This document shows, one piece after another, positions 2,814 to 26,573 of a DNA stretch of 64,000 nucleotides. Both the position numbers and the translations under genes were made by a program. Location: positions 80,405-144,404 of IMG/VR virus record IMGVR_UViG_3300047567_000058. One strand, 5' to 3'. Within the stretch, counting starts at the first letter, position 1, and every line of letters starts with the position of its first letter. The notes beneath the pieces are model-generated. The model was not told the origin of the DNA, did not search any database, and worked only from the letters and a program-made list of their open reading frames with translations. The stretch is from a virus (Duplodnaviria; Heunggongvirae; Uroviricota; Caudoviricetes).

Positions 2814-2898
2814 TGGTGCGCGAAACTGGAGTTGAACCAGCATGCTTTTGGGGCAGCGGCTTCTGAGACCGCAGCGTATACCATTTCGCCATTCGCGC
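2814..2898 (-). tRNA. tRNA-Leu(CAG)
   Basis: Cloverleaf, loop CTCAGAA, long variable arm, encoded CCA. Confidence 0.93.
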
Positions 2899-2899
2899 A

Positions 2900-3312
2900 T
2901 GGTGGACCTGAGGGGAATCGAACCCCTGTCCGAAGGTTCCATCAAATAGTCACTACAGCTTGTTTGGCGTTTGTAATCACGGCGCATCTACGCCAACGGA
3001 ACTGACGCCGTGATAGCAATCGGCGATAACCGTTTTCCGTTCCCGTTTGCCATGGGACCGGAAGCGTCGGTCTTTTTGTGACGTCACTCCCCGCGTTGGA
3101 GACGTAAACAACGCGGATGACGTGCCATCGGTCCCGCAGGATCGACGAGCCCCAGACTAGCTGAGGTCTACGCCTTAGGCAGCGTAGGCATAGCTACGGC
3201 TTGCGCCGTAGTTATAATGATAACCGTTAGCGATTATTGGGCTTGGTGTATTAGGCTCACCGGGCCGCTGCGACTAAGATCTGGTCGCCTCCGTCAAAAC
3301 CTGGGCAGGCCC
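2900..3312 (-). ncRNA. ssrA: tmRNA; tag ANGYHYNYGASRSYAYAA*
   Basis: 5' GGGCCTG pairs with 3' CAGGTCC-A-CCA with G3.U70; T-arm GGTTCGATTCC; TTTGACGG near 5' end; ATAATC then GCT resume codon and an 18-codon tag ending YAYAA-TAA. Confidence 0.93.
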
Positions 3313-3658
3313 GACAGAGAATGGTTTGATGCGGTGTTTTCCTTCGCCGTCGTTTCCCTTCCGCAGAGCCTCAGCACGCCTTTGGCACTAGAATGTCGCC
3401 GGCGCACCTAGCTGTTTTTGCATGGAACCGAATAATTGATTTATGGACATCGATGCAGTCATATGCGGAGTTTTCTGAGCCAGTCCACGCCGTTTTACGA
3501 GCGCTCCTTGTGACTCAGCGTTCCGTGTTTTCTCACGGGGCTTGATCTCGGTTATCACGCCAAGAATCGGCCTGCCTTTGTGATATCGGCGCAGGCAATC
3601 GCGCCTAATCTGACCACCATCGGCCGTATCGCCGGCCGATGATGCAATCATTCGAAAT

Positions 3659-3735
3659 TGGTTGCGGGAGTGAGAGTCGAACCCACTATTTTCAGCTTAT
3701 GAGGCTGATAGGATACCCGGTTCCGTATACCCGCT
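3659..3735 (-). tRNA. tRNA-Met(CAT), initiator-like
   Basis: Loop CTCATAA; fMet-like acceptor (A)GCGGG/CCCGCA-A-CCA with 1:72 mismatch. Confidence 0.85.
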
Positions 3736-8965: not shown

Positions 8966-9053
8966 TGGCGGAAGGATAGGGGTTTGAACCCTAGAGGGAT
9001 TGCTCCCTGCCGGTTTTCAAGACCGGTGCCATCAACCACTCGGCCATCCTTCC
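8966..9053 (-). tRNA. tRNA-Ser(TGA)
   Basis: Loop CTTGAAA, long variable arm, G73-CCA. Confidence 0.93.
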
Positions 9054-9055
9054 AC

Positions 9056-9132
<77 letters not shown>

Positions 9133-9239
9133 GAACGAACGTTGAGCGGACTTACAATCGTCCTTCGCTCACGATTATTATATATCTTGTATCGGCAAAA
9201 TGACTACTACTATAAACTAATTTAGCGGTTGCTTTAATC

Positions 9240-9269
9240 AAAAAAAAGAACCGCATACGCGACTCTTAT
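9240..9269 (-). terminator. intrinsic terminator
   Basis: AAGAGTCGC-GTAT-GCGGTTCTT followed by a T run on minus strand. Confidence 0.6.
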
Positions 9270-9276
9270 TTTTAGA

Positions 9277-9373
9277 TGGTAGTCGGGGCGGGACTTTAAC
9301 CCACATTCACTGATTGTATCAGCTTTTACATTCAATTATAAGTTGAACTCTCTAAACATTGAGATACCCGACT
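9277..9373 (-). tRNA. atypical tRNA-Ile(TAT)-like, 97 nt
   Basis: Acceptor AGTCGGG/CCCGACT-A-CCA; anticodon arm TTCAA-CTTATAA-TTGAA; long variable region; T-loop TTAAAGT. Confidence 0.6.
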
Positions 9374-9377
9374 ATGC

Positions 9378-9453
9378 TGGTGGAACTTAGGGGGATCGGA
9401 CCCCTGACCTCCTGCTTGCAAAGCAGGCGCTCTCCCGGCTGAGCTAAAGCCCC
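9378..9453 (-). tRNA. tRNA-Ala(TGC)
   Basis: G3.U70, loop TTTGCAA, T-loop TCCGATC. Confidence 0.92.
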
Positions 9454-9531
9454 ATTAAGGCAAGCTATTGAGGGCTTGCCATTACCCTGCGCGTTTCTCG
9501 GCCTTTTGGGGTACCGCCCCTCTGGCCGATC

Positions 9532-9605
9532 TGGAGCGAGATACGGGAATCGGACCCGCGTATTCACCTTGGAGGGGTGATGTTCTACCATTGAACAAAT
9601 CCCGC
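9532..9605 (-). tRNA. tRNA-Gly(TCC)
   Basis: Loop CCTCCAA (C33), U73-CCA. Confidence 0.88.
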
Positions 9606-9671
9606 GCGACACCCCTGGATGGGATCATAGATATTGTAGTATCTATTGCCGATTCCGTCCAGGGATTTATT

Positions 9672-10421
9672 TTATTTTTTCTTCGCAGCGAGGTATCCGC
9701 AGTTGCGGAGCGCCTGGGCGAAGCAGTCGCAGAAGACGCGGCGATACTTGTACATATTGCCATCGTTCTCATTGACTCTCATCACATGGACGAGCAGTTT
9801 GTCGATCTTGTCGTATTGGTTGCCCTTGGATCCCGGGAAGTGGATGTCCGCCGAATCGCTCCTCGAGACGCTGGATCCCATCTCGGTCGCCGGATCTCCG
9901 ACGAGAAGGATGTGGAAGGTGTCGCGATGATGGTATTTGGCCCCGGGATTGTCCGGAGCGGCTTTGATGATGCCGACGTACATCGTCGACGTTTGGCCGG
10001 CGATGGTCATCTTGACGTTGACCGAATTGGGGTCGCTCATCAAGGCGCTGTCTTTGTCGGCGTCGCGCTTGGCGTATTTGGAATGGATGATCTCCTGCTT
10101 GCTTGCGGCATGCGCCTTGGCGGCGTCCTCTTCGCTGCGGTCAGGGGTCTTATCCTCGAATTGGCCTTCCGGATCCTTGCCTTCGAGAAGCGTTTGCTGC
10201 GGCTGGGGATTGGCCTCAGCCGGAGCTGGCTTCGCCTCTTCTTCGAGGCGGTTGCGGATTTCGTGGTCGAGCTCGGACAGGGCGTTGATCGCCCCTAGGG
10301 CAGACACCGATTGCGCCTCGTTTGTCTGTTGGGCGTTAAGCTCGTATCTCTTGGCGGTCGTCATGGCTCCGATGAGAGCCAGGATCTCCGACACTTCTGT
10401 GGTCTTATTCATAAAATTCAT
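9672..10421 (-). CDS. hypothetical protein
   Basis: Track ORF 9672..10445; ATG 10421 has AAAGGA SD. Confidence 0.75.
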   Translation of the reverse strand: MNFMNKTTEVSEILALIGAMTTAKRYELNAQQTNEAQSVSALGAINALSELDHEIRNRLEEEAKPAPAEANPQPQQTLLEGKDPEGQFEDKTPDRSEEDAAKAHAASKQEIIHSKYAKRDADKDSALMSDPNSVNVKMTIAGQTSTMYVGIIKAAPDNPGAKYHHRDTFHILLVGDPATEMGSSVSRSDSADIHFPGSKGNQYDKIDKLLVHVMRVNENDGNMYKYRRVFCDCFAQALRNCGYLAAKKK

Positions 10422-10441
10422 TTGTCCTTTCTTCGGCGATG

Positions 10442-10699
10442 TCACGCGCCGGCTTTGCTGGTCTTCAATTCGCTGTTCGTGAAGTCGTAGTCGACGATGG
10501 CGTCGCCTCCGAACTTCTTGCGCAGCGCGCTGAGCTCAGCCAAAATGATGTCGATCTGCTGTTTGTACGCGTCATGATCAGGATCATCGCGCTCGTCGTC
10601 GACGCGCATGAACATCCTTGACAGATAATCGTACGCGTCATTGATGGTGAATTGAGCGATCTGTATGCACAGGTCTCTCTTGATTTCGGCTTTCTGCAT
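10442..10699 (-). CDS. hypothetical protein
   Basis: 85 aa ORF, GGAGG upstream. Confidence 0.7.
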   Translation of the reverse strand: MQKAEIKRDLCIQIAQFTINDAYDYLSRMFMRVDDERDDPDHDAYKQQIDIILAELSALRKKFGGDAIVDYDFTNSELKTSKAGA

Positions 10700-11287
10700 T
10701 CAGCGTCCATGATGACGTCCTCCGACCGACTCGGGGTTATCGGGTCCCATATCTTCTCGAATGTGCTTTCTATAGGCGAGAATTTATTGACGTAATCGCC
10801 GCTGTCAAGGCGATAGTTCCTATGAGGGGTGTCGCTCCACGTTAGCTTGCTGGCGTATTCGTGCTTGACGGATTTCTCATAGCAAGCTTTGCATATGTAC
10901 AAGACATACCCGCTCGTGATGTAAGACGACGGCTTTCCGCAAAGGGCGCACACCGATTCTGAGACGTCTTCGTATTTCATGACGATCTCCTCGGTTGCCT
11001 CATTGCCTCCGCTGTCATACCAGCAAAGCGTTCCGTATTTCTCTTTCACCTGCTCCACCTGGTACTTCTCCAGGAGCCCATCTTTCTTAAGCTGGGCTTT
11101 CAGCTCCTTGCAGAGCTTCACTCCGAATGCCTTTCGCCATCCGTCTGGGATGTCATCGAGGTACGTGTAGCGGTAGTCATGCTTTGCCAAAGCGTTGCCG
11201 CAATAATCTTCGGGAGGATGCAGAAACGGGAACCGTTTGATTAGGATGTAGTTCCCTGAGGATTTTAAAAATATTTTCCATGAACAT
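10700..11287 (-). CDS. hypothetical protein with CxxC (frameshifts near 11255 and 10743)
   Basis: SD GAAAGGA-ATG at 11287; removing one G at 11254-11256 gives MFMENIFKILRNYILIKRFP into track ORF; motif QVKEKYGTLCWY...CALCG. Confidence 0.6.
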
Positions 11288-11340
11288 TCCTTTCTAGTCA
11301 CAAGTATCATATATCGTTCATGCGCGATTTGCCAGAGATA

Positions 11341-11940
11341 TCAGATTTCGACGTTAAGAAGGGCTGTTGCGATAGCTGGGTTTTCCTGCTCTGACTTCGG
11401 GAAGGAAGCCACTATGCTTCGCAGAAGCCTTGCGCTTGTTGTGACGCTGCAGGTATGGATCTCTATCAGCTGAAGCTTGATATGGCTCGCATCCCATTTC
11501 TGGGCGCACTTGACGTATTCGTTGATGTCTGACGTTACTGAAAGAGTGAGCGGATCACTGTCCTTGATCCTCACTCCGAAGTCTATCGATGTGCGACAAG
11601 ACTTGGCAGTGATGCCGACGAACATGTCTATTTTGCAATTGGGGGCTTTTGGCGTTTCCATTATGATGTAGCTTTTGCAATTCCCAGGATTGGAAATGAT
11701 GAATTTGCTTGTCGCTGCGTCATAGGCATCTTTGACGGCTGGAATCATTGGAATGTATTCATCGGTAACAGCCGGAAATATCAAAACCGATGGCGATTTG
11801 CCGGAGATATCGATGTCGTTCTTAACAAGAATCATGTTATACGACTTGATCTTTCCGGTATCGATTTTGCCATCATGGAGCTTGACCATCCCGGCGATAT
11901 GCCAATCGTCTGGGCTGTTTTCCCATTTCCGATCTGACAT
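11341..11940 (-). CDS. hypothetical protein
   Basis: 199 aa ORF. Confidence 0.7.
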   Translation of the reverse strand: MSDRKWENSPDDWHIAGMVKLHDGKIDTGKIKSYNMILVKNDIDISGKSPSVLIFPAVTDEYIPMIPAVKDAYDAATSKFIISNPGNCKSYIIMETPKAPNCKIDMFVGITAKSCRTSIDFGVRIKDSDPLTLSVTSDINEYVKCAQKWDASHIKLQLIEIHTCSVTTSARLLRSIVASFPKSEQENPAIATALLNVEI

Positions 11941-12015
11941 TCACAAACGATTTTTGGCGATCGATCATGAAAAGGCCATTAGACTCGTTAGCCGTTCCAA
12001 TGTATCCTCGGTCGC

Positions 12016-12417
12016 TCATTTCTCGTCTTCCCAGGAAATCCCGCCGCCTGAGCAGTTTAGTTTCTTGAAATCCTCGAGTTTGTGCTTAAGGATATCTATT
12101 TCGGCATCGGCTCTCGTATTAGATTCGTTCTTTCTATTGATGGCATCATCGATCTCTTTCTGAATCTTGGAAATCACCGTTGAGGCATATCCTTGATCAG
12201 ACAACGCATTTATGTCTTGCTTTGATCCGCTGTATTCGAAATTGTAAAAATCTTCATTGATCGGGAATCTTCCGAATTCCAAAACATAGATGTCTGGTAA
12301 GTCTTCATCATATTCATGCTTATGTGCTGCTAAAACAGCATAAATCTTGTCGCATCCTCTCATCTCGTTGGTCTTAGTATTTTTGATGATGTCCATCTCA
12401 AATAGCCTTCTTTCCAC
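12016..12417 (-). CDS. hypothetical protein
   Basis: 133 aa ORF downstream of a sigma-A-like promoter. Confidence 0.7.
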   Translation of the reverse strand: MERRLFEMDIIKNTKTNEMRGCDKIYAVLAAHKHEYDEDLPDIYVLEFGRFPINEDFYNFEYSGSKQDINALSDQGYASTVISKIQKEIDDAINRKNESNTRADAEIDILKHKLEDFKKLNCSGGGISWEDEK

Positions 12418-12423
12418 GACGAA

Positions 12424-12452
12424 ATGATACCATGCCTAGGAGCGGAGGTCAA
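12424..12452 (-). promoter_or_regulatory. sigma-A/70-like promoter
   Basis: TTGACC-N17-TATCAT with TG extended -10. Confidence 0.65.
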
Positions 12453-12460
12453 TGCTGAGG

Positions 12461-12492
12461 AAAAAATAAAATAAACCCCCGATCTCTCGGGG
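12461..12492 (-). terminator. intrinsic terminator
   Basis: CCCCGA/TCGGGG hairpin then T-rich tract on minus strand. Confidence 0.6.
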
Positions 12493-12572
12493 ATCTATCT
12501 TGGCGAGAACTTTCCCAGCCTAGAGGTGGACCGAATACCGGCTGCACGAATGCTGTCTTCAGCCCAAACGAA

Positions 12573-12890
12573 TCACTTCAATCCATTCAGCTTTGTCTGA
12601 AGAGCTGCTTTCTTCTCGGCATAGTCTGAAGGTCCGACATGATAATGAGCGTAATCGTATTCAAGATCTGATAGCTGATTTTTGATGGCTTGGATGGCGT
12701 TGTCTTTGGCGGGGATGTGCGACTGGATCATCGGGGCCGGCTTTCCGCCATTCTTAGCTCTGGCTTCCTCGTCTTTCTTCGGGTCCCCGGTAGGATTCCA
12801 TCCTTCAAGGATGCAGACCTCTTCCCAGGTTATGTTGTCCGGATCGTATCCGGCGCTGATCATTTTAGCGCATCTTTCGTTGTATGTCAT
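12573..12890 (-). CDS. hypothetical late protein
   Basis: Track ORF trimmed to MTYNERCAK; AACA-N6-TA motif immediately upstream. Confidence 0.7.
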   Translation of the reverse strand: MTYNERCAKMISAGYDPDNITWEEVCILEGWNPTGDPKKDEEARAKNGGKPAPMIQSHIPAKDNAIQAIKNQLSDLEYDYAHYHVGPSDYAEKKAALQTKLNGLK

Positions 12891-12905
12891 AGCAACTATC
12901 CTCCG

Positions 12906-12918
12906 ATAATCTATTGTT
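12906..12918 (-). promoter_or_regulatory. AR9-type late promoter motif
   Basis: AACAATAGATTAT. Confidence 0.65.
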
Positions 12919-12943
12919 GCGGTCGTAAAAAAAGATCGGCCAG

Positions 12944-13309
12944 CTATTTGCCAACCGATCTTTGATACCTCTTGTAGAATCTGAAGCCGATTCTCTCGGC
13001 TTCGTCTTCTATGCCAGGCGATCTCAGGTCTAACCCTGAATTCGCCTGAACTGAATGCGTCAGCTCGTGCATCAGAAGATGCACTGAGTTGGCCATTGAG
13101 GTTTTCTCGATGTAGACGTCCAGGCCATCTATGGAGCGATATCCTGTGGTCTTCCATCCTTTGATAGGATGCGGAAACATCCTATTGAGCTTTCTCAACT
13201 CGACGACGTGAAGGCGGATGCCACCACGATCTATCTCATCAAGAAGCTCAGAGTATGCTTGATCGCTTGCTTTGCATAGCGATCTGCAGACGGACACGAC
13301 TTTGGTCAT
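12944..13309 (-). CDS. putative zincin-like metallopeptidase domain protein
   Basis: LLMHELTHSVQ (HExxH) plus downstream IEDEAE; SD GAAAGGAGG before ATG 13309. Confidence 0.5.
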   Translation of the reverse strand: MTKVVSVCRSLCKASDQAYSELLDEIDRGGIRLHVVELRKLNRMFPHPIKGWKTTGYRSIDGLDVYIEKTSMANSVHLLMHELTHSVQANSGLDLRSPGIEDEAERIGFRFYKRYQRSVGK

Positions 13310-13365
13310 GATCCATCCTCCTTTCTTCAATTAAATCATATATTTTCGAACTGCCCGTGATAACA

Positions 13366-13392
13366 AGAAAAGCCCAAGATATCTCTTGGGCT
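13366..13392 (-). terminator. terminator closing the main tRNA array
   Basis: AGCCCAAGA/TCTTGGGCT hairpin then TTTTCTT on minus strand. Confidence 0.75.
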
Positions 13393-13400
13393 ATTGTGTC

Positions 13401-13486
13401 TGGTGCCCTCGGCAGGACTTGAACCTGTACGACTTTGGATCACTGCCACCTCAAAGCAGCGCGTATACCAATTTCGCCACGAGGGC
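13401..13486 (-). tRNA. tRNA-Leu(GAG)
   Basis: Loop TTGAGGT, long variable arm, CCA. Confidence 0.92.
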
Positions 13487-13492
13487 ATAGAA

Positions 13493-13567
13493 TGGGAGGA
13501 CTCGTCGGTACTGACCCGGCTTTTTCCGATTCACAGTCGGATGCCTTACCTTTAGGCTAGAGTCCTC
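13493..13567 (-). tRNA. tRNA-His(GTG)
   Basis: Loop CTGTGAA, encoded G-1:C73; T-loop GTCAGTA. Confidence 0.85.
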
Positions 13568-13574
13568 ATCAGAA

Positions 13575-13649
13575 TGGTGGATCTACCGGGAATCGAACCC
13601 GGAACTTTGCCTTGCGGAAGCAGCGTTTTCCCCGTTGAACTACAGACCC
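13575..13649 (-). tRNA. tRNA-Ala(CGC)
   Basis: G3.U70, loop TCCGCAA (C33). Confidence 0.8.
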
Positions 13650-13652
13650 ATC

Positions 13653-13728
13653 TGGTCTTCGCGGATCGTGATGGTCGATCGGCCTTCCCCTCGTGAAGGG
13701 GACGCTCTCCCCGCTGAGCTACGCGAAG
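13653..13728 (-). tRNA. tRNA-Val(CAC)
   Basis: Loop TTCACGA; T-loop ACCATCA. Confidence 0.82.
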
Positions 13729-13734
13729 AAATAT

Positions 13735-13809
13735 TGGTGTCCGATGATCGTGACGATCGATCGACCTCTTCCATGTCAAGGAAGCGTTCTCCCGCTGAAC
13801 TAATCGGAC
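13735..13809 (-). tRNA. tRNA-Val(GAC)
   Basis: Loop TTGACAT; T-loop ATCGTCA. Confidence 0.85.
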
Positions 13810-13812
13810 AAA

Positions 13813-13887
13813 TGGTCCTGGTAGAGAGTGCTGGCCTCCCGACCTATCGGTTATCAGCCGATCGCTCTACCGCTGAGCTACACCAGG
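13813..13887 (-). tRNA. tRNA-Ile(GAT)
   Basis: Loop CTGATAA; T-loop GCCAGCA. Confidence 0.85.
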
Positions 13888-13893
13888 ATGTAA

Positions 13894-13969
13894 TGGTGTC
13901 CCAACCTGGATTTGAACCAGGACTGTACAGCTTCTAAGGCTGTCATCTCTGCCGTTGGATTATTGGGAC
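13894..13969 (-). tRNA. tRNA-Leu(TAG), short variable loop
   Basis: ACAGC-CTTAGAA-GCTGT, A73-CCA, no long arm. Confidence 0.8.
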
Positions 13970-13972
13970 AAA

Positions 13973-14047
13973 TGGTGCCTCCATTCCGATTCGGACGGGA
14001 ATCAGACGCTTACAAGACGCCCGCTCTTCCTACTGAGCTATAGAGGC
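13973..14047 (-). tRNA. tRNA-Thr(TGT)
   Basis: Loop CTTGTAA; T-loop TCCGAAT. Confidence 0.88.
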
Positions 14048-14050
14048 AAA

Positions 14051-14125
14051 TGGTACTCGATGCCGGGTTTGGACCGACGACCCGCCCCGTGTAAAGGGGC
14101 CGCTCTCCCGCTGAGCTAATCGAGC
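14051..14125 (-). tRNA. tRNA-Val(TAC)
   Basis: Loop TTTACAC; T-loop TCCAAAC. Confidence 0.9.
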
Positions 14126-14130
14126 AGATG

Positions 14131-14215
14131 TGGTGCTTGAGGCGGGATTCGGACCCGCAAGCCCTAAGGCGACGGATTTTAAGTCCGTTGCGTATACCGG
14201 TTCCGCCACTCAAGC
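14131..14215 (-). tRNA. tRNA-Leu(TAA)
   Basis: Loop CTTAAAA, long arm; T-loop TCCGAAT. Confidence 0.92.
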
Positions 14216-14233
14216 AATCGTGTTAGTATCGTA

Positions 14234-14309
14234 TGGTGCCGGGCCAGGGAATCGGACCCAATGGTTTGCCGCTTACGAGACGGCTGTTCTGCCACTGAAC
14301 TAGACCGGC
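14234..14309 (-). tRNA. tRNA-Thr(CGT)
   Basis: Loop CTCGTAA; T-loop TCCGATT. Confidence 0.9.
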
Positions 14310-14314
14310 GAATT

Positions 14315-14388
14315 TGGTAGCCGAGAGAAGAGTTGGACTTCCGTTCGACGCGTATGGGGCGTCTGTCCTACCGTTGAACGACTCGGCC
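14315..14388 (-). tRNA. tRNA-Met/Ile2(CAT)
   Basis: Loop CCCATAC (C33); T-loop TCCAACT; Met vs lysidine-Ile not resolvable by eye. Confidence 0.78.
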
Positions 14389-14395
14389 ATGCAAT

Positions 14396-14469
14396 TGGTG
14401 CCCTCACCCAGAGTCGGACTGAGACCTGATCCTTACCATGGATCCGTTCTGCCGTTTAACTACAAGGGC
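14396..14469 (-). tRNA. tRNA-Thr(GGT)
   Basis: Loop ATGGTAA; T-loop TCCGACT. Confidence 0.88.
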
Positions 14470-14472
14470 ATC

Positions 14473-14547
14473 TGGTGCTTCGACAGAGATTCGGACTCTG
14501 GACCCACGGGTTAAAAGCCCGCTGCTCTGCCGCTGAGCTATCGAAGC
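14473..14547 (-). tRNA. tRNA-Lys(TTT)
   Basis: Loop CTTTTAA; T-loop TCCGAAT. Confidence 0.92.
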
Positions 14548-14551
14548 AAAT

Positions 14552-14629
14552 TGGTCTCCCATAGAGGATTTGAACCCCTAACCTTATCGTCCGTGGCGAC
14601 ACGCTCTGATCCAGTTGAGCTAATGGGAG
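14552..14629 (-). tRNA. tRNA-Arg(ACG)
   Basis: Loop CCACGGA (C33). Confidence 0.88.
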
Positions 14630-14632
14630 ATG

Positions 14633-14708
14633 TGGTTCCCCTTCCACGTGTCGAGCGTGGCTATGCAGGATTCAAGGTCCTGTGGCTTGACCGCTTGCCT
14701 AAAGGGGA
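14633..14708 (-). tRNA. tRNA-Gln(TTG)
   Basis: U1-A72, loop CCTTGAA (C33); T-loop CTCGACA. Confidence 0.85.
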
Positions 14709-14714
14709 ATAAGT

Positions 14715-14788
14715 TGGCGGGCCTTAAGCGAGTCAGACGCTTGTTGTTCGGTTAACGGCCGAGCGCTCTATCGTTGAGCTAAAGACCC
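14715..14788 (-). tRNA. tRNA-Asn(GTT)
   Basis: Loop CCGTTAA (C33), G73; T-loop TCTGACT. Confidence 0.85.
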
Positions 14789-14902
14789 ATCTTGATGGGG
14801 AGGGCGCCTCAGCAGCCGCCCTCCCGTTATAATGGGATGCGATGGCGCGCATCCCCCGGAAGCGGACGCGTTACCGGCGCGCTCTTCCGACTAGAATTCT
14901 GA

Positions 14903-14976
14903 TGGCAGAGGTTGAAGGTGTCGGACCTCCGTTAGCGGTTTTGGGGACCGCCGTCCTACCGTTGGACTAAACCCCT
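14903..14976 (-). tRNA. tRNA-Trp(CCA)
   Basis: AGGGG start, loop CCCCAAA (C33), U11-A24; T-loop TCCGACA. Confidence 0.9.
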
Positions 14977-14978
14977 AG

Positions 14979-15054
14979 TGGTTCCCCTTCCACGTGTCGA
15001 GCGTGGCTATGCGAAGTTCAGAGCTTCGTGGCTTAGCCGCTTGCCTAAAGGGGA
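14979..15054 (-). tRNA. tRNA-Gln(CTG)
   Basis: Loop CTCTGAA; near-copy of Gln(TTG). Confidence 0.87.
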
Positions 15055-15060
15055 ATGTGA

Positions 15061-15136
15061 TGGTGATCGCTGCGCGTGTCGATCGCGCTGATATAGGAGT
15101 GAAAATCCCATGGCTTTGCCGATTGCCTAAGCGACC
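15061..15136 (-). tRNA. tRNA-Glu(TTC)
   Basis: Loop TTTTCAC; T-loop ATCGACA. Confidence 0.85.
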
Positions 15137-15138
15137 AT

Positions 15139-15213
15139 TGGTGATCCCATGAGGTGCCTGCCCTCGATCTCCGGGTTGAGAACCCGGCGAACAATACGCT
15201 GTTCTATGGGACC
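15139..15213 (-). tRNA. tRNA-Glu(CTC)
   Basis: CCGGG-TTCTCAA-CCCGG; degenerate T-loop GCAGGCA. Confidence 0.75.
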
Positions 15214-15265
15214 ATATCGTATCGGATCGGATCGTCGCGGGGAATTTATTTTTTATTTCCCGTTT

Positions 15266-15353
15266 TGGCAGAGGGCGCAGGAGTCGAACCCGCCCAGGAT
15301 GCTGTCCTTCGTCGCGCCTCAGACGCGATGCCTTGCCGCTCGGCCAGCCCTCT
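15266..15353 (-). tRNA. tRNA-Ser(TGA), second copy
   Basis: Loop TCTGAGG (C33, G37), long arm, G73. Confidence 0.78.
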
Positions 15354-15358
15354 ACAAA

Positions 15359-15445
15359 TGGCAGTGGGTGCAGGAGTCGAACCCGCTCGCGGTTTCCCGT
15401 TCGTCGGCTTTCGAAGCCGATACCTTGCCGTTCGGTCAACCCACT
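15359..15445 (-). tRNA. tRNA-Ser(CGA)
   Basis: Loop TTCGAAA, long arm. Confidence 0.9.
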
Positions 15446-15449
15446 ATAA

Positions 15450-15525
15450 TGGTCGTGATGTAGGGCTTCGATCCCTCATTCCGTGCTCCCAAGGCACGTG
15501 TCCTGCCGAATTAGACGACATCACG
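15450..15525 (-). tRNA. tRNA-Pro(TGG)
   Basis: C1-G72, loop CTTGGGA; T-loop ATCGAAG. Confidence 0.88.
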
Positions 15526-15529
15526 ATGA

Positions 15530-15616
15530 TGGCGGAGGATGTTGGGGTCGAACCAACTCCGGAGTTACCCGCTACCTGTTTAGCGAACAGGCCTCTTGCC
15601 GTTTGAGTAATCCTCC
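15530..15616 (-). tRNA. tRNA-Ser(GCT)
   Basis: Loop TCGCTAA (C33), long arm. Confidence 0.9.
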
Positions 15617-15623
15617 ACATGAA

Positions 15624-15705
15624 TGGTGCTTGCTCAGGGACTCGGACCCTGAAGGTTTCCCGGCGGATTTTGAGTCCGCTGCGTCTTCCATTGCGCCAAG
15701 CAAGC
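15624..15705 (-). tRNA. tRNA-Leu(CAA)
   Basis: Loop CTCAAAA; T-loop TCCGAGT. Confidence 0.92.
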
Positions 15706-15708
15706 ATC

Positions 15709-15784
15709 TGGCGCCCAAGAGAGGATTCGAACCTCTGCCTGAAGCTTTAGAGGAACTTCCGTCTGTCCGCTGGCTTACTTGGGC
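15709..15784 (-). tRNA. tRNA-Arg(TCT), second copy (alternative register CTA)
   Basis: Best stem AAGTT/AGCTT gives loop CCTCTAA; a shifted register shows CTCTAAA. Confidence 0.65.
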
Positions 15785-15786
15785 AT

Positions 15787-15863
15787 TGGCCCCGACGCTA
15801 GGATTCGAACCTAGAACCTGCTCTTTAGGGGAGAGCCGATCTTGTCCATTGATCTACGTCGAG
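15787..15863 (-). tRNA. tRNA-Arg(CCT)
   Basis: GCTCT-CCCCTAA-AGAGC (C33). Confidence 0.85.
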
Positions 15864-15877
15864 AATCTGATAGTAAT

Positions 15878-15952
15878 TGGTGCCCCCTCGGGGATTCGGA
15901 CCCCGGACCCACGGTTTAAGAGACCGCTGCTCTGCCGCTGAGCTAAGGAGGC
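15878..15952 (-). tRNA. tRNA-Lys(CTT)
   Basis: Loop CTCTTAA; T-loop TCCGAAT. Confidence 0.92.
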
Positions 15953-15956
15953 ATAT

Positions 15957-16035
15957 TGGTCGGGCTGACAGGATTCGAACCTGCGATGTCTTGCTCCCGA
16001 AGCAAGCGCCGTAGTCCAAGCTGGGCCACAGCCCG
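15957..16035 (-). tRNA. tRNA-Pro(CGG)
   Basis: Loop TTCGGGA. Confidence 0.92.
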
Positions 16036-16039
16036 ATGA

Positions 16040-16128
16040 TGGCAGAGACTACAGGAGTCGGACCTGCTCGCGATGTTGATCGCTCGATCGGCTTCCAACC
16101 GATTGCCTTACCGTTCGGCCAAGTCTCT
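16040..16128 (-). tRNA. tRNA-Ser(GGA)
   Basis: Loop TTGGAAG, long arm; T-loop TCCGACT. Confidence 0.88.
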
Positions 16129-16132
16129 ACAT

Positions 16133-16207
16133 TGGTGGAACTTGAGGGATTTGAACCCTCGACATCCTCCATGCCATGGAGGCGCTCTCCCACTGAGCTA
16201 AAGCCCC
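16133..16207 (-). tRNA. tRNA-Ala(GGC)
   Basis: G3.U70, loop ATGGCAT. Confidence 0.92.
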
Positions 16208-16214
16208 ATTGAAT

Positions 16215-16289
16215 TGGTGGGCCCCGCTGCGTTTGAATCAGCTTCTGGTGATTTTCAGTCACCCACACTACCGCATGTGTTAGAGACCC
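16215..16289 (-). tRNA. tRNA-Phe(GAA)
   Basis: Loop CTGAAAA. Confidence 0.88.
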
Positions 16290-16293
16290 ATAT

Positions 16294-16368
16294 TGGCGGT
16301 GACATCCGGGGACGATCCGGAACCGCTCGCGTGACAGGCGAGCATCATAGCCGTTAGACCATGCCACC
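16294..16368 (-). tRNA. tRNA-Asp(GTC)
   Basis: Loop CTGTCAC, G73; T-loop ATCGTCC. Confidence 0.88.
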
Positions 16369-16372
16369 GTAT

Positions 16373-16446
16373 TGGAGCTGGCAACGGGTGTCGGACCCGT
16401 GCAGGCTGTCTGGCGGACAGCCGTCATACCGTTTGACCATGCCAGC
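16373..16446 (-). tRNA. tRNA-Gly(GCC)
   Basis: Loop CCGCCAG (C33), U73; T-loop TCCGACA. Confidence 0.85.
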
Positions 16447-16449
16447 ATC

Positions 16450-16524
16450 TGGAGCAAGTGACGGGTGAACGATCCCGTGTCACCGGCTTGGGAAGCCGGC
16501 ATACTGCCGTTGTACTACACTTGC
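16450..16524 (-). tRNA. tRNA-Gly(CCC)
   Basis: Loop TTCCCAA, U73; 8-nt T-loop ATCGTTCA. Confidence 0.85.
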
Positions 16525-16530
16525 ATATAT

Positions 16531-16613
16531 TGGTGCCCACTGATGGACTCGAACCACCGAACCCGAAGGAGCTGATTTACAGTCAGCCGTCGTTGCCACT
16601 GGACCAAGTGGGC
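16531..16613 (-). tRNA. tRNA-Tyr(GTA)
   Basis: Loop CTGTAAA, long arm. Confidence 0.93.
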
Positions 16614-16617
16614 ATAT

Positions 16618-16692
16618 TGGAGGTTCGTCTCCGTGTCGAGCGGAGTCGTGTCAGGGTTGCGACCTGATGCGTTCCCGTTTCGCCAACGAACC
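16618..16692 (-). tRNA. tRNA-Cys(GCA)
   Basis: Loop TCGCAAC (C33), U73; T-loop CTCGACA. Confidence 0.87.
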
Positions 16693-22211: not shown

Positions 22212-23639
22212 TCACTTGGAGGGTTTGGCTTCGGGCATCTTGAAGTTGTATCTTGTCATAACGTCAGGATATTTCTTCAGAAGACGCTCGATCTTGCCTG
22301 ACTTATCGACATTTCCGGCATATGCGATTTGGCCAGCCAGCTGATCGATCGTTCCTTCGATCTTGCGATCTTTGGATAGCAGATAAACCTTCTGGCGGAT
22401 GCTTTCGTAAAGCGATCGCTTGCAAGTGATCTGGTTCTTGTCGTTGATAGACAGCCCAGTCACATGACGCTTGTCTTTCGTGCATCCATAGACCTTATCC
22501 ATATTGAGGGTGAAGTAGCTTTCCAATCCGCATACGATGAACGCCTTCTGGAAGATCTTGAGCGCGACGTCAGGAACGATGAACTTATAGGAGCTCATCG
22601 TCATGTCGTCGGCATAGACCGTGAAGGCCATTCCGCATTTGGCGCACATATTGCGCATATAGGCGACCGGCTTGGCGATGATGGCGTTGGCCAAAGTGCC
22701 AGAGATCGGAGACCCGATGAAAAGCGCGTCATCGATCAGAATCATATCGAGGAATCTGTTTAGGGCTCTTTCAGGATCAGGCGCGTTGGCGAACAGAAAC
22801 TTGATCTTGTCGCTGACGAGCTGACGCTTGCAGCTTTGGAAGAAGTGATGGAAATCAAGCTTGAAGACGAAGTCGTTATCCTTATGAGGGTCGACGTTGT
22901 CCACGATGCTCTTGTTCTCTTTGTACGCTACCTGGAAGCTGGAGTTGGTCTTGTCGAAGATGCGCTGAAACACCTTATTCAGATCCTGAAGAGGAACTTT
23001 GATTTCCTCATGCGGAGCGACGATGTCTCTTGTCTTGCCATTCGGCTTCTTGATCTGATACTGCCTGTAAATGATTTCTTTCTTATTGACGAGATCCGCA
23101 TACGCAAGAAAGACCGATACGATCTGAGGCATGAAGAAGAACTGCCCTCTTAAGTGCCCGCGGGATTCGACTTTCCTTTCGTAGTATGACAGATTTTCTT
23201 CGCATGATTTTAGGCCAAGCTGATCATGCGCGGCGATCAATGCGTCGGATTCGCGCTTGCTTAATCCCATGATTCCGCAAAGCTCTTTGGCGACGTCGTC
23301 ATTCTCGGTTTTGTATAGGCAAACCGCCTCGTTGCTTCCGTTGATAAGCAGGAAGTACCTTCCGCACATAAACGATTGGAAAAACTGATCATATTGGCAA
23401 TTGAAGATCTTCTCGCATTTCAGCATGAAGTCTTTGCGATTATCGACCATGATGCCTGAATTGATTGACTCAAGCTCAGACGGAGTCATGGCTTTCGCTG
23501 ATTCAACGCCTTGAAAATAGACCCGATTTGCCTGCTTGGAGAATACTATTGATTTGAGGCCGCCTGTGATGCTGTCTCCAAGGAAGCAGATCGTATCGCT
23601 TCCTTCAACTGCAGGATTGGATGATTCTTGAACTGACAT
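22212..23639 (-). CDS. retron-type reverse transcriptase with ~190 aa N-terminal extension
   Basis: KKPNGKTRDIVAP, DNVDPH (region X NAxxH-like), FKLDFHHFFQS, GSPISGTLAN, YADD, VTG (retron region Y). Confidence 0.9.
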   Translation of the reverse strand: MSVQESSNPAVEGSDTICFLGDSITGGLKSIVFSKQANRVYFQGVESAKAMTPSELESINSGIMVDNRKDFMLKCEKIFNCQYDQFFQSFMCGRYFLLINGSNEAVCLYKTENDDVAKELCGIMGLSKRESDALIAAHDQLGLKSCEENLSYYERKVESRGHLRGQFFFMPQIVSVFLAYADLVNKKEIIYRQYQIKKPNGKTRDIVAPHEEIKVPLQDLNKVFQRIFDKTNSSFQVAYKENKSIVDNVDPHKDNDFVFKLDFHHFFQSCKRQLVSDKIKFLFANAPDPERALNRFLDMILIDDALFIGSPISGTLANAIIAKPVAYMRNMCAKCGMAFTVYADDMTMSSYKFIVPDVALKIFQKAFIVCGLESYFTLNMDKVYGCTKDKRHVTGLSINDKNQITCKRSLYESIRQKVYLLSKDRKIEGTIDQLAGQIAYAGNVDKSGKIERLLKKYPDVMTRYNFKMPEAKPSK

Positions 23640-23664: not shown

Positions 23665-24336
23665 TCATTTCCGCTTTGTCTTAAACGGATTCGCGGATTT
23701 AGTATTCGACGATGTCATAGTCGGCTTCGGCTTCGTCCTGGGAGTGCAGAATTCGGATGGCTTAAGGCCATACGCTTTCTTTCTGGCATTCTCATAGACA
23801 TCGAATCCGCAGCCATAGTCATTGTAGCCATAGCAGCAATCGCAGCCATGCAGCTCTTTGGTGATGTTATCGACGCTGTTAGGATCGCCGCTGCATGACG
23901 AGAACACGTATCTGCCGATCGGGGCGTACGTCACATGCTCCGATATCTTGTTGCCTATCGTTATCTCAGTATGGTTCATCGTGGCCAGAATGGCGTAGTT
24001 CTTGCCAAGGCAATACATTAGGACGAGGAATCTTCCGGTTTCACGCCTTCCCGTGCTTCCGGATTCCCTGAATTCAAACACTCTGTATTTGTTGGTGCTC
24101 ACGAGAAAGTGATCCCATTTGCCAGTGCTCTGAGAGCTGTTGAGACCGGTGACGATGACTGACCCAGATCCCATGAGATTGTACCCATGGCATTCGTATG
24201 CCACGCCGTTAGACAGATCGTACTTCACGCCGTTAAACGACGCATGCTCATATCGAGCAAGGCTATGCATGCATTCTTTGACTGACTTCCAGTTCACGCC
24301 GCTTAACTGGCTTGGCTGGTTGTTCTGTGTCTTCAT
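23665..24336 (-). CDS. unknown RT-adjacent protein with Cys/Tyr/Gly-rich C-terminal segment
   Basis: 223 aa ORF with GGAAGGA SD; ends 26 nt before the RT start; SSCSG...HGCDCCYGYNDYGCGF. Confidence 0.75.
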   Translation of the reverse strand: MKTQNNQPSQLSGVNWKSVKECMHSLARYEHASFNGVKYDLSNGVAYECHGYNLMGSGSVIVTGLNSSQSTGKWDHFLVSTNKYRVFEFRESGSTGRRETGRFLVLMYCLGKNYAILATMNHTEITIGNKISEHVTYAPIGRYVFSSCSGDPNSVDNITKELHGCDCCYGYNDYGCGFDVYENARKKAYGLKPSEFCTPRTKPKPTMTSSNTKSANPFKTKRK

Positions 24337-24390
24337 GACTTGTCCTTCCCGGGAAAAATAAATAATTTCCCTAACTGTTTCGTATACATT

Positions 24391-24420
24391 TAAAAAGCCT
24401 TGAGTTATTGGCTCAAGGCT
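24391..24420 (-). terminator. intrinsic terminator-like hairpin after RNAP beta-C
   Basis: AGCCTTGAG/CTCAAGGCT then TTTTA. Confidence 0.7.
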
Positions 24421-24473
24421 GGCTAGTAGGATTAACGTCTTCCTAGCTTCACTGGAATCATATATCCCCAGCG

Positions 24474-26573
24474 CTATTTTTGAGAAGACAGCTCTTCGTC
24501 ATCGACGGCCAGATCAAGGATCTCGAGATACTTGTCCAAGGTCTTGCGGTTGATGTTCTTGTCGCCGGACATCTTGATGGAAACGTTCATCGGATCCTCG
24601 GATTCAAGCAAAGCCTTGATAAGGGCTTCTCTGTCTGCCGGGGAAGATGACGTCTCGCGGAGCTCTTTGGCGACGATGTCGCCTCGCTTCGTTAGCATCA
24701 GGTTGTCAGTCTCCATCTCGCCTAGACGAATCGGGGTGGAAGCGACCAGCTGGCGTTTGTCCTTCTTGAGGTTGGACTTTGACGGCAGATCGCGAATGTT
24801 GAGTATGGAGGCCGAGCGCGCGCTTGATTTGTTGGCAGGCTCATGCTTCAATCTGATGAAGTACATGTCGCCGAGCACCATCTTGCGCTCGATGCCTTTC
24901 ATATTGTAGAGGCTGCACCATTCCGGATGCTTCTCGAAGATGTCGACGAATTGCTGCATCGTCGTGTTTCCGAAGAACGGAGGCTGATGGATGTAGATGC
25001 CATTGTCCTCGATGTCCTTGATGAATTCCTCTTTCTTGGCGCGGCTCATCGTCGCGTACCGAGAATAGAAGAAGTCATATTCGGTTTTATTGATGGACTT
25101 CATGTAGTCGAACAAGACGTCCGCTTTGGCTCCGAGGTTATCCAATCCCTTCATGATCTTAACGACATGATCGGACATGAAGTTGATATGCTGCTCTTGG
25201 ATCTGAGCGAGATTGAGACGGTTGATGATGCCTAAGCTGTTCAGGCACACATCGGCTCTGACTCCGTCTTCGGTCATCGGCATCTTGTCATCGTCTTCGA
25301 TGAGGGAAACGACGCCTTTGTTGCCGTATCTTCCGGAAAGCTTTGACCCCGGAACAAGAGGATTCTCTTTGAGGATCGTGAAGGTCATCTTAAACCCATC
25401 GAAGACTCTCTGATCATCCTTCCACTTGATATCCGGATCGATGTACTCATGGGCTTTCTTCCAATAGAATCCAAGCTCGTCGGTGTACTGATTCGGATTG
25501 AGTCTCTTAGGAAGCGGATGCTTATACGAAGCCCCGTATTCCTTCTTCTCGGCCTCGTAGGCTTTCTTCTCGGCGGCGGTCATGCCGTTGATAAGCTGGC
25601 GTTCCGTCGCGACCGGGATGACTTTCTCGAGAGCGTGCGCCAATTCGGTGTAGTAGGAATTCTGCTCCTCGATCACCTTCGACGCCTCTTTGCAGAAGTC
25701 GTTCTTGCCGGACTTGAGCTTATCGAGGTCGACGTTCGAGCAGATATCGATGTCAACGACTTTGCCGCCGTTGGTGTAGATGATCTGATCGCTGTCTTCG
25801 TCGATGCGTCTCATGCGGTCCGACTGGAAGTTATAAAGAACGTTTCGGTTGTTCTCGCGGCGCAGTGCCACAAGGACATGCTCCCCGGTCATATCGCCGA
25901 CTTCGGGGAACGACTTATAGGTGGTTTCATCGCCATACAGATTGAGCATGACGTCGATGGTGCTTACCATGACGGTTGTTTGCTCGACCTTGTAAGAGGT
26001 AAGCTTCTCAGCCGCTGATTTGCTGATGACGATCGCGTCCTCGAACGTGCGATTGAGATATGGGATGAAAACCGCTTTGAGGTTGACTCCATACCCATAG
26101 CATCCGTTGTCGAGATAGTTCGACGTCTTGTAAATCGTCGATCCTTCCTTAACGGTGTCGCCAACCGAATTAGGCTTGACGCAATCGATGAACGCGGCGC
26201 CATAGTCTTCGGTGATATGATCAGCCGCGCGGATATGGATGATGTCATACACCTTGGATTTGGTGTATTGGACGATCAAGTCATAATTAAGCTGATTCTT
26301 GGCGATCTTGTCGATGATGACGAAATCCTCTTTGGCCTTCTTGCATGCGACCGAGTATTCGCCGACCTGGTTTTCGAAATTGGTGAAGACCTTCGGATAT
26401 TCAGGGGAGACGAGATGGACGAACTGGCTGAGATGATTCGAGAACATGTTAATGCGCTGCGTGTCGCAGCAGTTATCACGGGGGACCAAGAGCTCTTCAG
26501 TAAGGAAATAATGAGGGTTGCCCTTATTGTCGCTCTTATGGAAATCGAAGTATGTCTTTTGATCTTTGCTCAT
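24474..26573 (-). CDS. phage multisubunit RNAP beta subunit, C-terminal half (probably non-virion RNAP)
   Basis: GSKLSGRYGNKGVVS, NSLGIINRLN, YFIRLKHEPANK, RLGEME correspond to conserved beta segments; 699 aa. Confidence 0.92.
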   Translation of the reverse strand: MSKDQKTYFDFHKSDNKGNPHYFLTEELLVPRDNCCDTQRINMFSNHLSQFVHLVSPEYPKVFTNFENQVGEYSVACKKAKEDFVIIDKIAKNQLNYDLIVQYTKSKVYDIIHIRAADHITEDYGAAFIDCVKPNSVGDTVKEGSTIYKTSNYLDNGCYGYGVNLKAVFIPYLNRTFEDAIVISKSAAEKLTSYKVEQTTVMVSTIDVMLNLYGDETTYKSFPEVGDMTGEHVLVALRRENNRNVLYNFQSDRMRRIDEDSDQIIYTNGGKVVDIDICSNVDLDKLKSGKNDFCKEASKVIEEQNSYYTELAHALEKVIPVATERQLINGMTAAEKKAYEAEKKEYGASYKHPLPKRLNPNQYTDELGFYWKKAHEYIDPDIKWKDDQRVFDGFKMTFTILKENPLVPGSKLSGRYGNKGVVSLIEDDDKMPMTEDGVRADVCLNSLGIINRLNLAQIQEQHINFMSDHVVKIMKGLDNLGAKADVLFDYMKSINKTEYDFFYSRYATMSRAKKEEFIKDIEDNGIYIHQPPFFGNTTMQQFVDIFEKHPEWCSLYNMKGIERKMVLGDMYFIRLKHEPANKSSARSASILNIRDLPSKSNLKKDKRQLVASTPIRLGEMETDNLMLTKRGDIVAKELRETSSSPADREALIKALLESEDPMNVSIKMSGDKNINRKTLDKYLEILDLAVDDEELSSQK

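Follow-up and report, generated by a model that had tools for sequence, protein, structure and literature searches.

The DNA analysed here is a window of 64,000 nucleotides (nt), corresponding to bases 80405–144404 of the single IMG/VR virus record IMGVR_UViG_3300047567_000058 (201,011 bp; 50% guanine plus cytosine, GC), and our subject is its set of transfer RNA (tRNA) genes and the uridines missing from their loops. Forty-five tRNA genes covering all 20 amino acids were identified. Every tRNA gene of the 201-kb record sits inside the window, and all lie on the minus strand, in a main array, an outlying cluster and a group that also holds a transfer-messenger RNA (tmRNA) gene (Table 1). At its default setting ARAGORN reported 41 tRNAs and the tmRNA, and a lowered threshold added tRNA-CAU and tRNA-Asn. 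Two further genes were missed by ARAGORN even at the low threshold, so that the program folded 43 of the 45: tRNA-Ile(GAU) was added by Rfam and tRNA-Glu(CUC) was folded by hand. Scores against the Rfam tRNA family RF00005 were 39–67 bits where reported, while several divergent members fell below E 0.1. The cloverleaf features of the family were present, including the 7-bp acceptor stem, the 5-bp anticodon stem and the 7-nt anticodon loop. The T-loops of tRNA-Ile(GAU) and tRNA-Glu(CUC) are aberrant, and the latter gene also lacks G18G19.

Few nucleotides in biology are as conserved as uridine 33 and pseudouridine 55 of tRNA, which form the U-turns of the anticodon loop and the T-loop, respectively. 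The first-pass annotation of this DNA had listed 13 tRNAs with cytidine at position 33 (C33). Our count returned exactly these 13 among the 45, so that the family's uridine before the anticodon is missing from them; the other 32 carry U33, and a purine was never found at this position. Since each C33 tRNA has a well-paired 5-bp anticodon stem closing a 7-nt loop, no alternative register yields U33. Ser(UGA) and Arg(UCU) of the main array, both with C33, have U33 duplicates in the outlying cluster. The C33 gene for Gln(UUG) can be compared with its U33 paralogue Gln(CUG): outside the anticodon arm the two differ at two adjacent D-loop bases, whereas their anticodon stems are wholly different, and only Gln(UUG) has C33.

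Table 1. tRNA genes and other features described in the text. Positions are those of the window unless a contig is named; the C33 site is given as the G on the plus strand.
Feature	Position	Strand	Anticodon loop	C33 site	Remarks
tRNA-Gly(UCC)	9532–9605	−	CCUCCAA	9574	C55
tRNA-Ala(CGC)	13575–13649	−	UCCGCAA	13617	G3:U70; extra D-loop G in the window relative to all other assemblies
tRNA-Met/Ile(CAU)	14315–14388	−	CCCAUAC	14357	C55
tRNA-Arg(ACG)	14552–14629	−	CCACGGA	14595	
tRNA-Gln(UUG)	14633–14708	−	CCUUGAA	14676	
tRNA-Asn(GUU)	14715–14788	−	CCGUUAA	14757	T-loop UCUGACU (C55, U56)
tRNA-Trp(CCA)	14903–14976	−	CCCCAAA	14945	C55; G73
tRNA-Ser(UGA)	15266–15353	−	UCUGAGG	15322	G37
tRNA-Ser(GCU)	15530–15616	−	UCGCUAA	15585	
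tRNA-Arg(UCU)	15709–15784	−	CCUCUAA	15752	
tRNA-Arg(CCU)	15787–15863	−	CCCCUAA	15830	
tRNA-Gly(GCC)	16373–16446	−	CCGCCAG	16415	C55
tRNA-Cys(GCA)	16618–16692	−	UCGCAAC	16661	U73
tRNA-Ile(GAU)	13816–13887	−			T-loop GCCAGCA
tRNA-Glu(CUC)	15139–15213	−			T-loop GCAGGCA
tRNA-Gln(CUG)	14979–15054	−			U33
Main tRNA array	13401–16692	−			38 densely packed CCA-encoding genes; C33 in 12
Outlying cluster	8966–9605	−			Ser(UGA), Arg(UCU), Ile(UAU), Ala(UGC), Gly(UCC); C33 in Gly(UCC) only
tRNA-Leu(CAG), tmRNA (2900–3312), tRNA-Met(CAU)	2814–3734	−			Canonical at 33, 54 and 55; same decoding set
Reverse transcriptase gene (RVT_1)	22212–23639				
Peptide deformylase/ribosomal protein S21 regions	L007: 7801–8376, 11754–11948; L012: 5055–5609, 8970–9164				

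The controls to which the set was compared include relatives of the phage itself. Two genes of the record have matches among the split beta subunits of jumbo-phage RNA polymerases. The top cultured matches are the Bacillus phages AR9 and PBS1 (36% identity), followed by Staphylococcus phage S6, Yersinia phage phiR1-37 and Listeria phage LPJP1; by these genes the phage is an AR9/PBS1-like jumbo phage. Control tRNAs were taken from environmental relatives of the clade (33 tRNAs; contigs L007, L012 and L011, with 35, 52 and 26% GC), from the cultured relatives AR9, S6, phiR1-37 and LPJP1 (10 tRNAs), from Gordonia phage Phendrix (30 tRNAs) and from the Klebsiella phages SEL21 (25 tRNAs) and vB_Kpn_AM_K6 (39 tRNAs). 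C33 was found in 3 of these 137 tRNAs, compared with 13 of 45 in the phage under study (Fisher P = 2e-6 against the first 88 controls). All three control cases, one in SEL21 and two in vB_Kpn_AM_K6, are tRNA-Ile(GAU) with the loop CCGAUAA. None of the clade relatives, the cultured relatives or Phendrix has a single C33. In the clade relatives no orthologous tRNAs could be recognised, the best identities being 57–78%. On these sequence comparisons, the C33 change is derived, far above background and lineage-specific. GC pressure alone is insufficient to produce it, since the clade and cultured relatives together, among them genomes at 26, 35 and 52% GC, have C33 in 0 of 43 tRNAs. As a sole cause, GC pressure was rejected on the evidence of relatives with equal GC and of an unchanged G content in the loops.

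The anomaly reported at position 33 stands, but uridines have been lost from the loops more widely, a pattern of which C33 is one facet and which the first-pass annotation had not noticed. In 18 of the 45 tRNAs, located between 9378 and 16446 of the window, the T-loop has C at position 55 (UCCGA...), compared with none of the 137 controls (P = 2e-10 against the first 88). The signal at position 55 is statistically stronger than that at position 33. Bearers of C55 include three tRNAs for Thr, two for Lys, Gly(UCC), Gly(GCC) and Trp and, as at position 33, only U or C occurs. Nine of the 42 folded tRNAs, and the two folded by hand as well, have A, C or G at position 54. The family's U54-U55-C56 motif is therefore not preserved across the set, while G53, C56 and C61 are kept. 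Uridine makes up 12% of D-loop bases compared with 21% in controls (P = 2e-4), and 32% of T-loop bases compared with 44% (P = 8e-4). Altogether, each tRNA has 5.3 loop uridines versus 7.5 in controls; C and A are increased and G is not. The canonical base is present at all three positions, 33, 54 and 55, in only 12 of the 45 tRNAs, five of which are located elsewhere than in the main array. C33 and C55 are distributed independently of each other (odds ratio 0.9). With 13 C33 and 18 C55 in one full set, this phage carries the highest combined load seen in our analysis.

C33 is not spread evenly over the anticodons. It occurs in 8 of 10 tRNAs with C at position 35 of the anticodon and in 5 of 35 others (P = 2e-4, post hoc). 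All four decoders of NGY codons, Gly(GCC), Ser(GCU), Cys(GCA) and Arg(ACG), have C33. In the phage genes, NGU codons are 5–20 times rarer than NGC codons (per 1000 codons, GGT 2.1 versus GGC 20 and TGT 0.6 versus TGC 12). C33 may restrict wobble, with phage codon usage co-adapted to it; however, the codon effect is not clean, because GT/AC is depleted genome-wide (odds 0.74).

The changes in the loops do not reflect decay, and the earlier statement that stems and CCA ends are intact can be extended to conserved positions and discriminator bases. Among the 43 machine-folded tRNAs, U8 is present in 43/43, G53 in 41/43, C56 in 40/42, A58 in 38/42 and C61 in 41/43, with a purine at position 37 in 43/43, the D-loop GG in 41/43 and an encoded CCA end in 42/43. 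None of the 915 stem pairs called is non-standard, and unpaired stem positions (1.12 per tRNA versus 1.23 in controls) show no excess. Identity elements agree with the anticodons: Ala has G3:U70; Trp, Asn and Ser have G73; Cys and Gly have U73. The C33 tRNAs decode codons common in the phage, namely GGA, GGC, AAC, AGC, AGA, CGC and UGC (per 1000 codons, AAC 30, GGA 28, AGC 25 and GGC 20).

Next, we asked whether independent assemblies carry the same letters, as a T at these sites in other reads would have turned C33 into an error of the record. Contigs of three runs from three studies (X1, X3 and X4) cover all C33 sites and show no substitution. Run X1 is labelled RNA-Seq, but its depth is flat over genes and tRNAs and it may be DNA; another run, X18, reaches the array in three short pieces only. 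Four further public contigs (L003–L006; JGI/Logan) share 97.7–99.9% identity with the window, and none of their mismatches falls in a tRNA gene. Sequencing or assembly error was thereby ruled out as the source of C33. The window does have single-base insertions or deletions (indels) of its own relative to every independent assembly, near 9214, 9239, 10690, 11254, 11922, 12927, 13630, 13709 and 15262. Two of them put an extra G into the D-loops of Ala(CGC) and Val(CAC), and others shift the frames of open reading frames (ORFs); in the ORF at 10465–11310 the last third is frame-shifted relative to L004:15443–16288. They are probably homopolymer errors of the window's own assembly. No window indel touches position 33.

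Across all strains the array is ~99.9% identical. Of the 273 mismatches in L005, nearly all fall within 24000–25718, so tRNAs identical between strains are uninformative on selection; conservation across strains was rejected as a signal of selection, the strains being near-identical outside that interval. The interval itself, ~1.7 kb inside the RNA polymerase beta gene, is ~15% divergent in L005, and its near-identity elsewhere suggests that the segment was recombined. Two further polymorphisms between strains were seen: L003, L005 and run X3 have ~530 extra bases near 12200 (about 12195–12214), and a contig of run X1 omits 969 bases (11463 to 12433).

What, then, could remove uridines from the loops of tRNAs that otherwise look sound? 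The reading we favour, and hold tentatively, is that these variant tRNAs work without being edited and are hardened against host enzymes whose targets are loop uridines. The C33 genes are genuine, genomically fixed variants, whose tRNAs would be used as they are. The lineage has removed loop uridines (U33 to C, U55 to C, U54 to A, C or G, and fewer uridines in the D-loop) while retaining all that folding, aminoacylation and decoding require. The driver would be selection to protect the phage decoding set from enzymes of the host or of rivals that recognise, modify or cut loop uridines, candidates being anticodon-loop or T-loop nucleases or modification-dependent nucleases. Transcription and charging of the C33 tRNAs and their use on the ribosome are inferred, and so is the selective agent. 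The pattern looks like directional selection and not like loss of function, because the changes hit only loop uridines, replace them with nothing but C at the two U-turn positions, spare folding and charging, and are absent from relatives of any GC content. C33 tRNAs do persist in working phages, since two cultured Klebsiella phages keep a C33 tRNA-Ile(GAU), and initiator tRNAs with C33 function in multicellular eukaryotes (PMC8887486). Hardening is favoured because nuclease escape through changes in the loops of phage tRNAs is an accepted idea (PMC10264068).

Several points weigh against hardening. Polymorphism gives no measure of selection, because the strains are so nearly identical in the array. 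At E ≤ 1, no phage tRNA repair genes (RNA ligase, CCA-adding enzyme) were found in the 201-kb record, which is ~78% complete, a limit that applies to every gene absence reported here. We know of no nuclease that is resisted through U33C, and to our knowledge the C33 set fits the target list of no known anticodon nuclease. The gamma-toxin of K. lactis cleaves a U33C stem-loop as well as the wild type (PMC2275089). The preferred substrates of Cas13a are Lys(UUU), Glu(UUC) and Thr(UGU) (PMC11042736). These keep U33 here and only Gln(UUG) has C33, so that Cas13a was rejected as the driver for the poor fit between its substrates and the C33 bearers. Finally, the E. coli TsaBCDE enzyme is unable to install t6A37 on a U33C tRNA (PMC8887486), and such a block is likely a cost for the five ANN-decoding C33 tRNAs.

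The main alternative, which we consider rather unlikely, is relaxed constraint: U33, U54, U55 and the D-loop uridines would matter less in this phage, for example because its tRNAs are perhaps short-lived and do not need host modifications, and U-to-C changes would have drifted to fixation at sites where any pyrimidine suffices, in tRNAs that work but gain nothing from C33. Drift would accommodate the independence of C33 and C55, the restriction of the changes to transitions to the other pyrimidine, the preference of same-strand fourfold sites for C (38%) over T (18%), and the lack of an identified partner gene or target. However, relatives and unrelated phages of equal GC (52–55%) retain U33 and U55, every stem and other invariant position is kept, and the tie between C33 and C35, albeit post hoc, is not predicted by plain drift. 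Loop A did not move to G, and the change is therefore a loss of U and not a drift in GC, which also counts against relaxed constraint. A less probable explanation is avoidance of modification, in which the substitutions would remove substrates or determinants of TruB (U55), TrmA (U54), Dus (D-loop U) and TsaBCDE (via U33). Phage tRNAs would then mature without host enzymes or without the marks that some defence nucleases need. The affected positions are indeed the classical sites of dihydrouridine, m5U54 and pseudouridine 55, C33 is an anti-determinant of t6A37 synthesis in E. coli (PMC8887486), and several main-array tRNAs are without the A36-A37-A38 motif of MiaA (loops UCUGAGG, UCGCAAC and UUGGAAG). 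Yet ANN decoders are only 5 of the 13 C33 tRNAs, U8, the s4U site, is kept in all folded tRNAs, many tRNAs keep U54-U55, and no benefit of under-modification has been shown.

The first-pass annotation had offered, beside nuclease escape, C-to-U editing by analogy with the C8-to-U8 editing of Methanopyrus, and had proposed a search of the rest of the genome for a cytidine deaminase. We regard it as very unlikely that some phage or host enzyme, not recognised so far, acts on the transcripts to turn C33 (and C55) into U or pseudouridine. The appeal of editing is that C replaces U strictly at two otherwise near-invariant U positions; moreover, the TrcP deaminase lacks the usual sequence motif (PMC9553926), so cryptic folds are possible, and the record is incomplete. 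Nevertheless, a six-frame profile search of the 201 kb (E ≤ 1) found no CMP/dCMP-type deaminase (PF00383) and no pseudouridine synthase of the RluA (PF00849) or TruB (PF01509, TruB_N) type, and no zinc deaminase motif (H/C-x-E...PCxxC) occurs in its ORFs of at least 60 amino acids. It is these absences that leave editing without support. The ORFs between and beside the arrays returned nothing informative from Pfam, PHROGs or the protein atlas, matching no family. One low-depth metatranscriptome contig (14250–14400) reads C at both positions 33 and 55 of tRNA-CAU, which is weak evidence, as the contig spans a spacer and may be precursor RNA or DNA. The C33 tRNA-Ile(GAU) of the two cultured Klebsiella phages indicates that C33 tRNAs can persist in working phages, and 18 + 13 sites in many contexts would demand a very broad editor. 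Such editing, if real, would have no precedent at the two U-turn positions, nor would a viral system that edits many tRNAs, and the phage would control the maturation of its own tRNAs. The least probable explanation, to the point of being nearly dismissible, is that the C33 genes are base-calling or assembly artefacts or unused pseudo-tRNAs. The indel errors described above, including the one extra G in each of two D-loops, and the aberrant T-loops of Ile(GAU) and Glu(CUC) give it some footing, but no substitution was found at C33 sites in the contigs of three studies or in the four JGI/Logan contigs, and cloverleaves, CCA ends and identity elements are intact.

Comparison with known systems places the hardened tRNAs proposed here in context. 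The cytoplasmic initiator tRNA-Met of multicellular eukaryotes has A54 and A60, and so shares a non-U54 T-loop with tRNAs of the present set. It is likewise a natural, functional C33 tRNA (PMC8887486), but it is a single tRNA that enters the P site directly, whereas the C33 tRNAs here belong to a bacterial virus, serve in elongation and span nine or ten amino-acid identities. In the Klebsiella phages SEL21 (T5-like) and vB_Kpn_AM_K6 (Straboviridae), the C33 tRNA-Ile(GAU) has a 7-nt loop and is otherwise normal; unlike in our phage, a single isoacceptor per genome is involved, T-loops are canonical (UUCGA) and the change is not set-wide. Phage tRNAs with anticodon-loop substitutions have been proposed to evade anticodon nucleases in cluster C1 mycobacteriophages and T5 (van den Berg et al. 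2023, PMC10264068). Those tRNAs resemble the present ones in being phage-encoded, intact and arranged in large arrays, with loops off the cellular consensus and with anticodon and identity elements kept, and the set studied here is of phage origin as well. They differ in that their changes involve loop positions shown to affect VapC-type cleavage, in tRNAs with a known host counterpart and nuclease. In our phage, 29% of a full set carries U33C, and this change goes together with C55, non-U54 and loss of D-loop U. Among editing systems, CDAT8 of Methanopyrus, acting on C8, and TrcP of Vibrio cholerae, by which C32 becomes pseudouridine (PMC9553926), share with this phage a genomic C where U is functionally expected, and TrcP is the closer analogue of the two. 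Both are dedicated deaminases fused to THUMP or RluA domains and act at one position of one or a few tRNAs, whereas the 201 kb revealed no gene of this kind, and an editor would here have to act at 31 sites in varied contexts.

In AR9/PBS1, S6 and phiR1-37, deoxyuridine replaces thymidine in the DNA. Since polymerase-subunit identity to the environmental relatives reaches only 50–57%, the phage forms an isolated branch, and neither single-protein scans of viral contigs nor one scan of metagenome contigs found closer relatives. The IMG/VR label of the record is provirus, but the genes on it are those of an AR9-like jumbo phage. A 219,300-bp contig holds an identical polymerase subunit, and the record is therefore probably a truncated phage genome. 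The reverse transcriptase gene lies just downstream of the RNA polymerase beta gene, a placement kept in the clade relatives L007, L010 and L011 despite the low polymerase identity. Genes for peptide deformylase and ribosomal protein S21 lie just upstream of the tRNA clusters in clade relatives (Table 1).

Our literature search turned up no paper on C33 or C55 in the tRNA sets of phages. Beside the high combined load, the window adds the link of C33 to a general loss of loop uridines, its tie to C35 anticodons and its placement in AR9-like jumbo phages. The tRNA region is present in runs from 15 wastewater and sludge studies and, because the phage is abundant in their samples, tRNA sequencing of wastewater or sludge, or isolation of the phage, is realistic. 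If the tRNAs work, then a third of a complete elongator set dispenses with U33 and 40% with U55, which bears on the true role of both residues. If the changes are adaptive, they would point to host defences that read loop uridines and would provide a simple sequence signature for phages under tRNA-directed attack.

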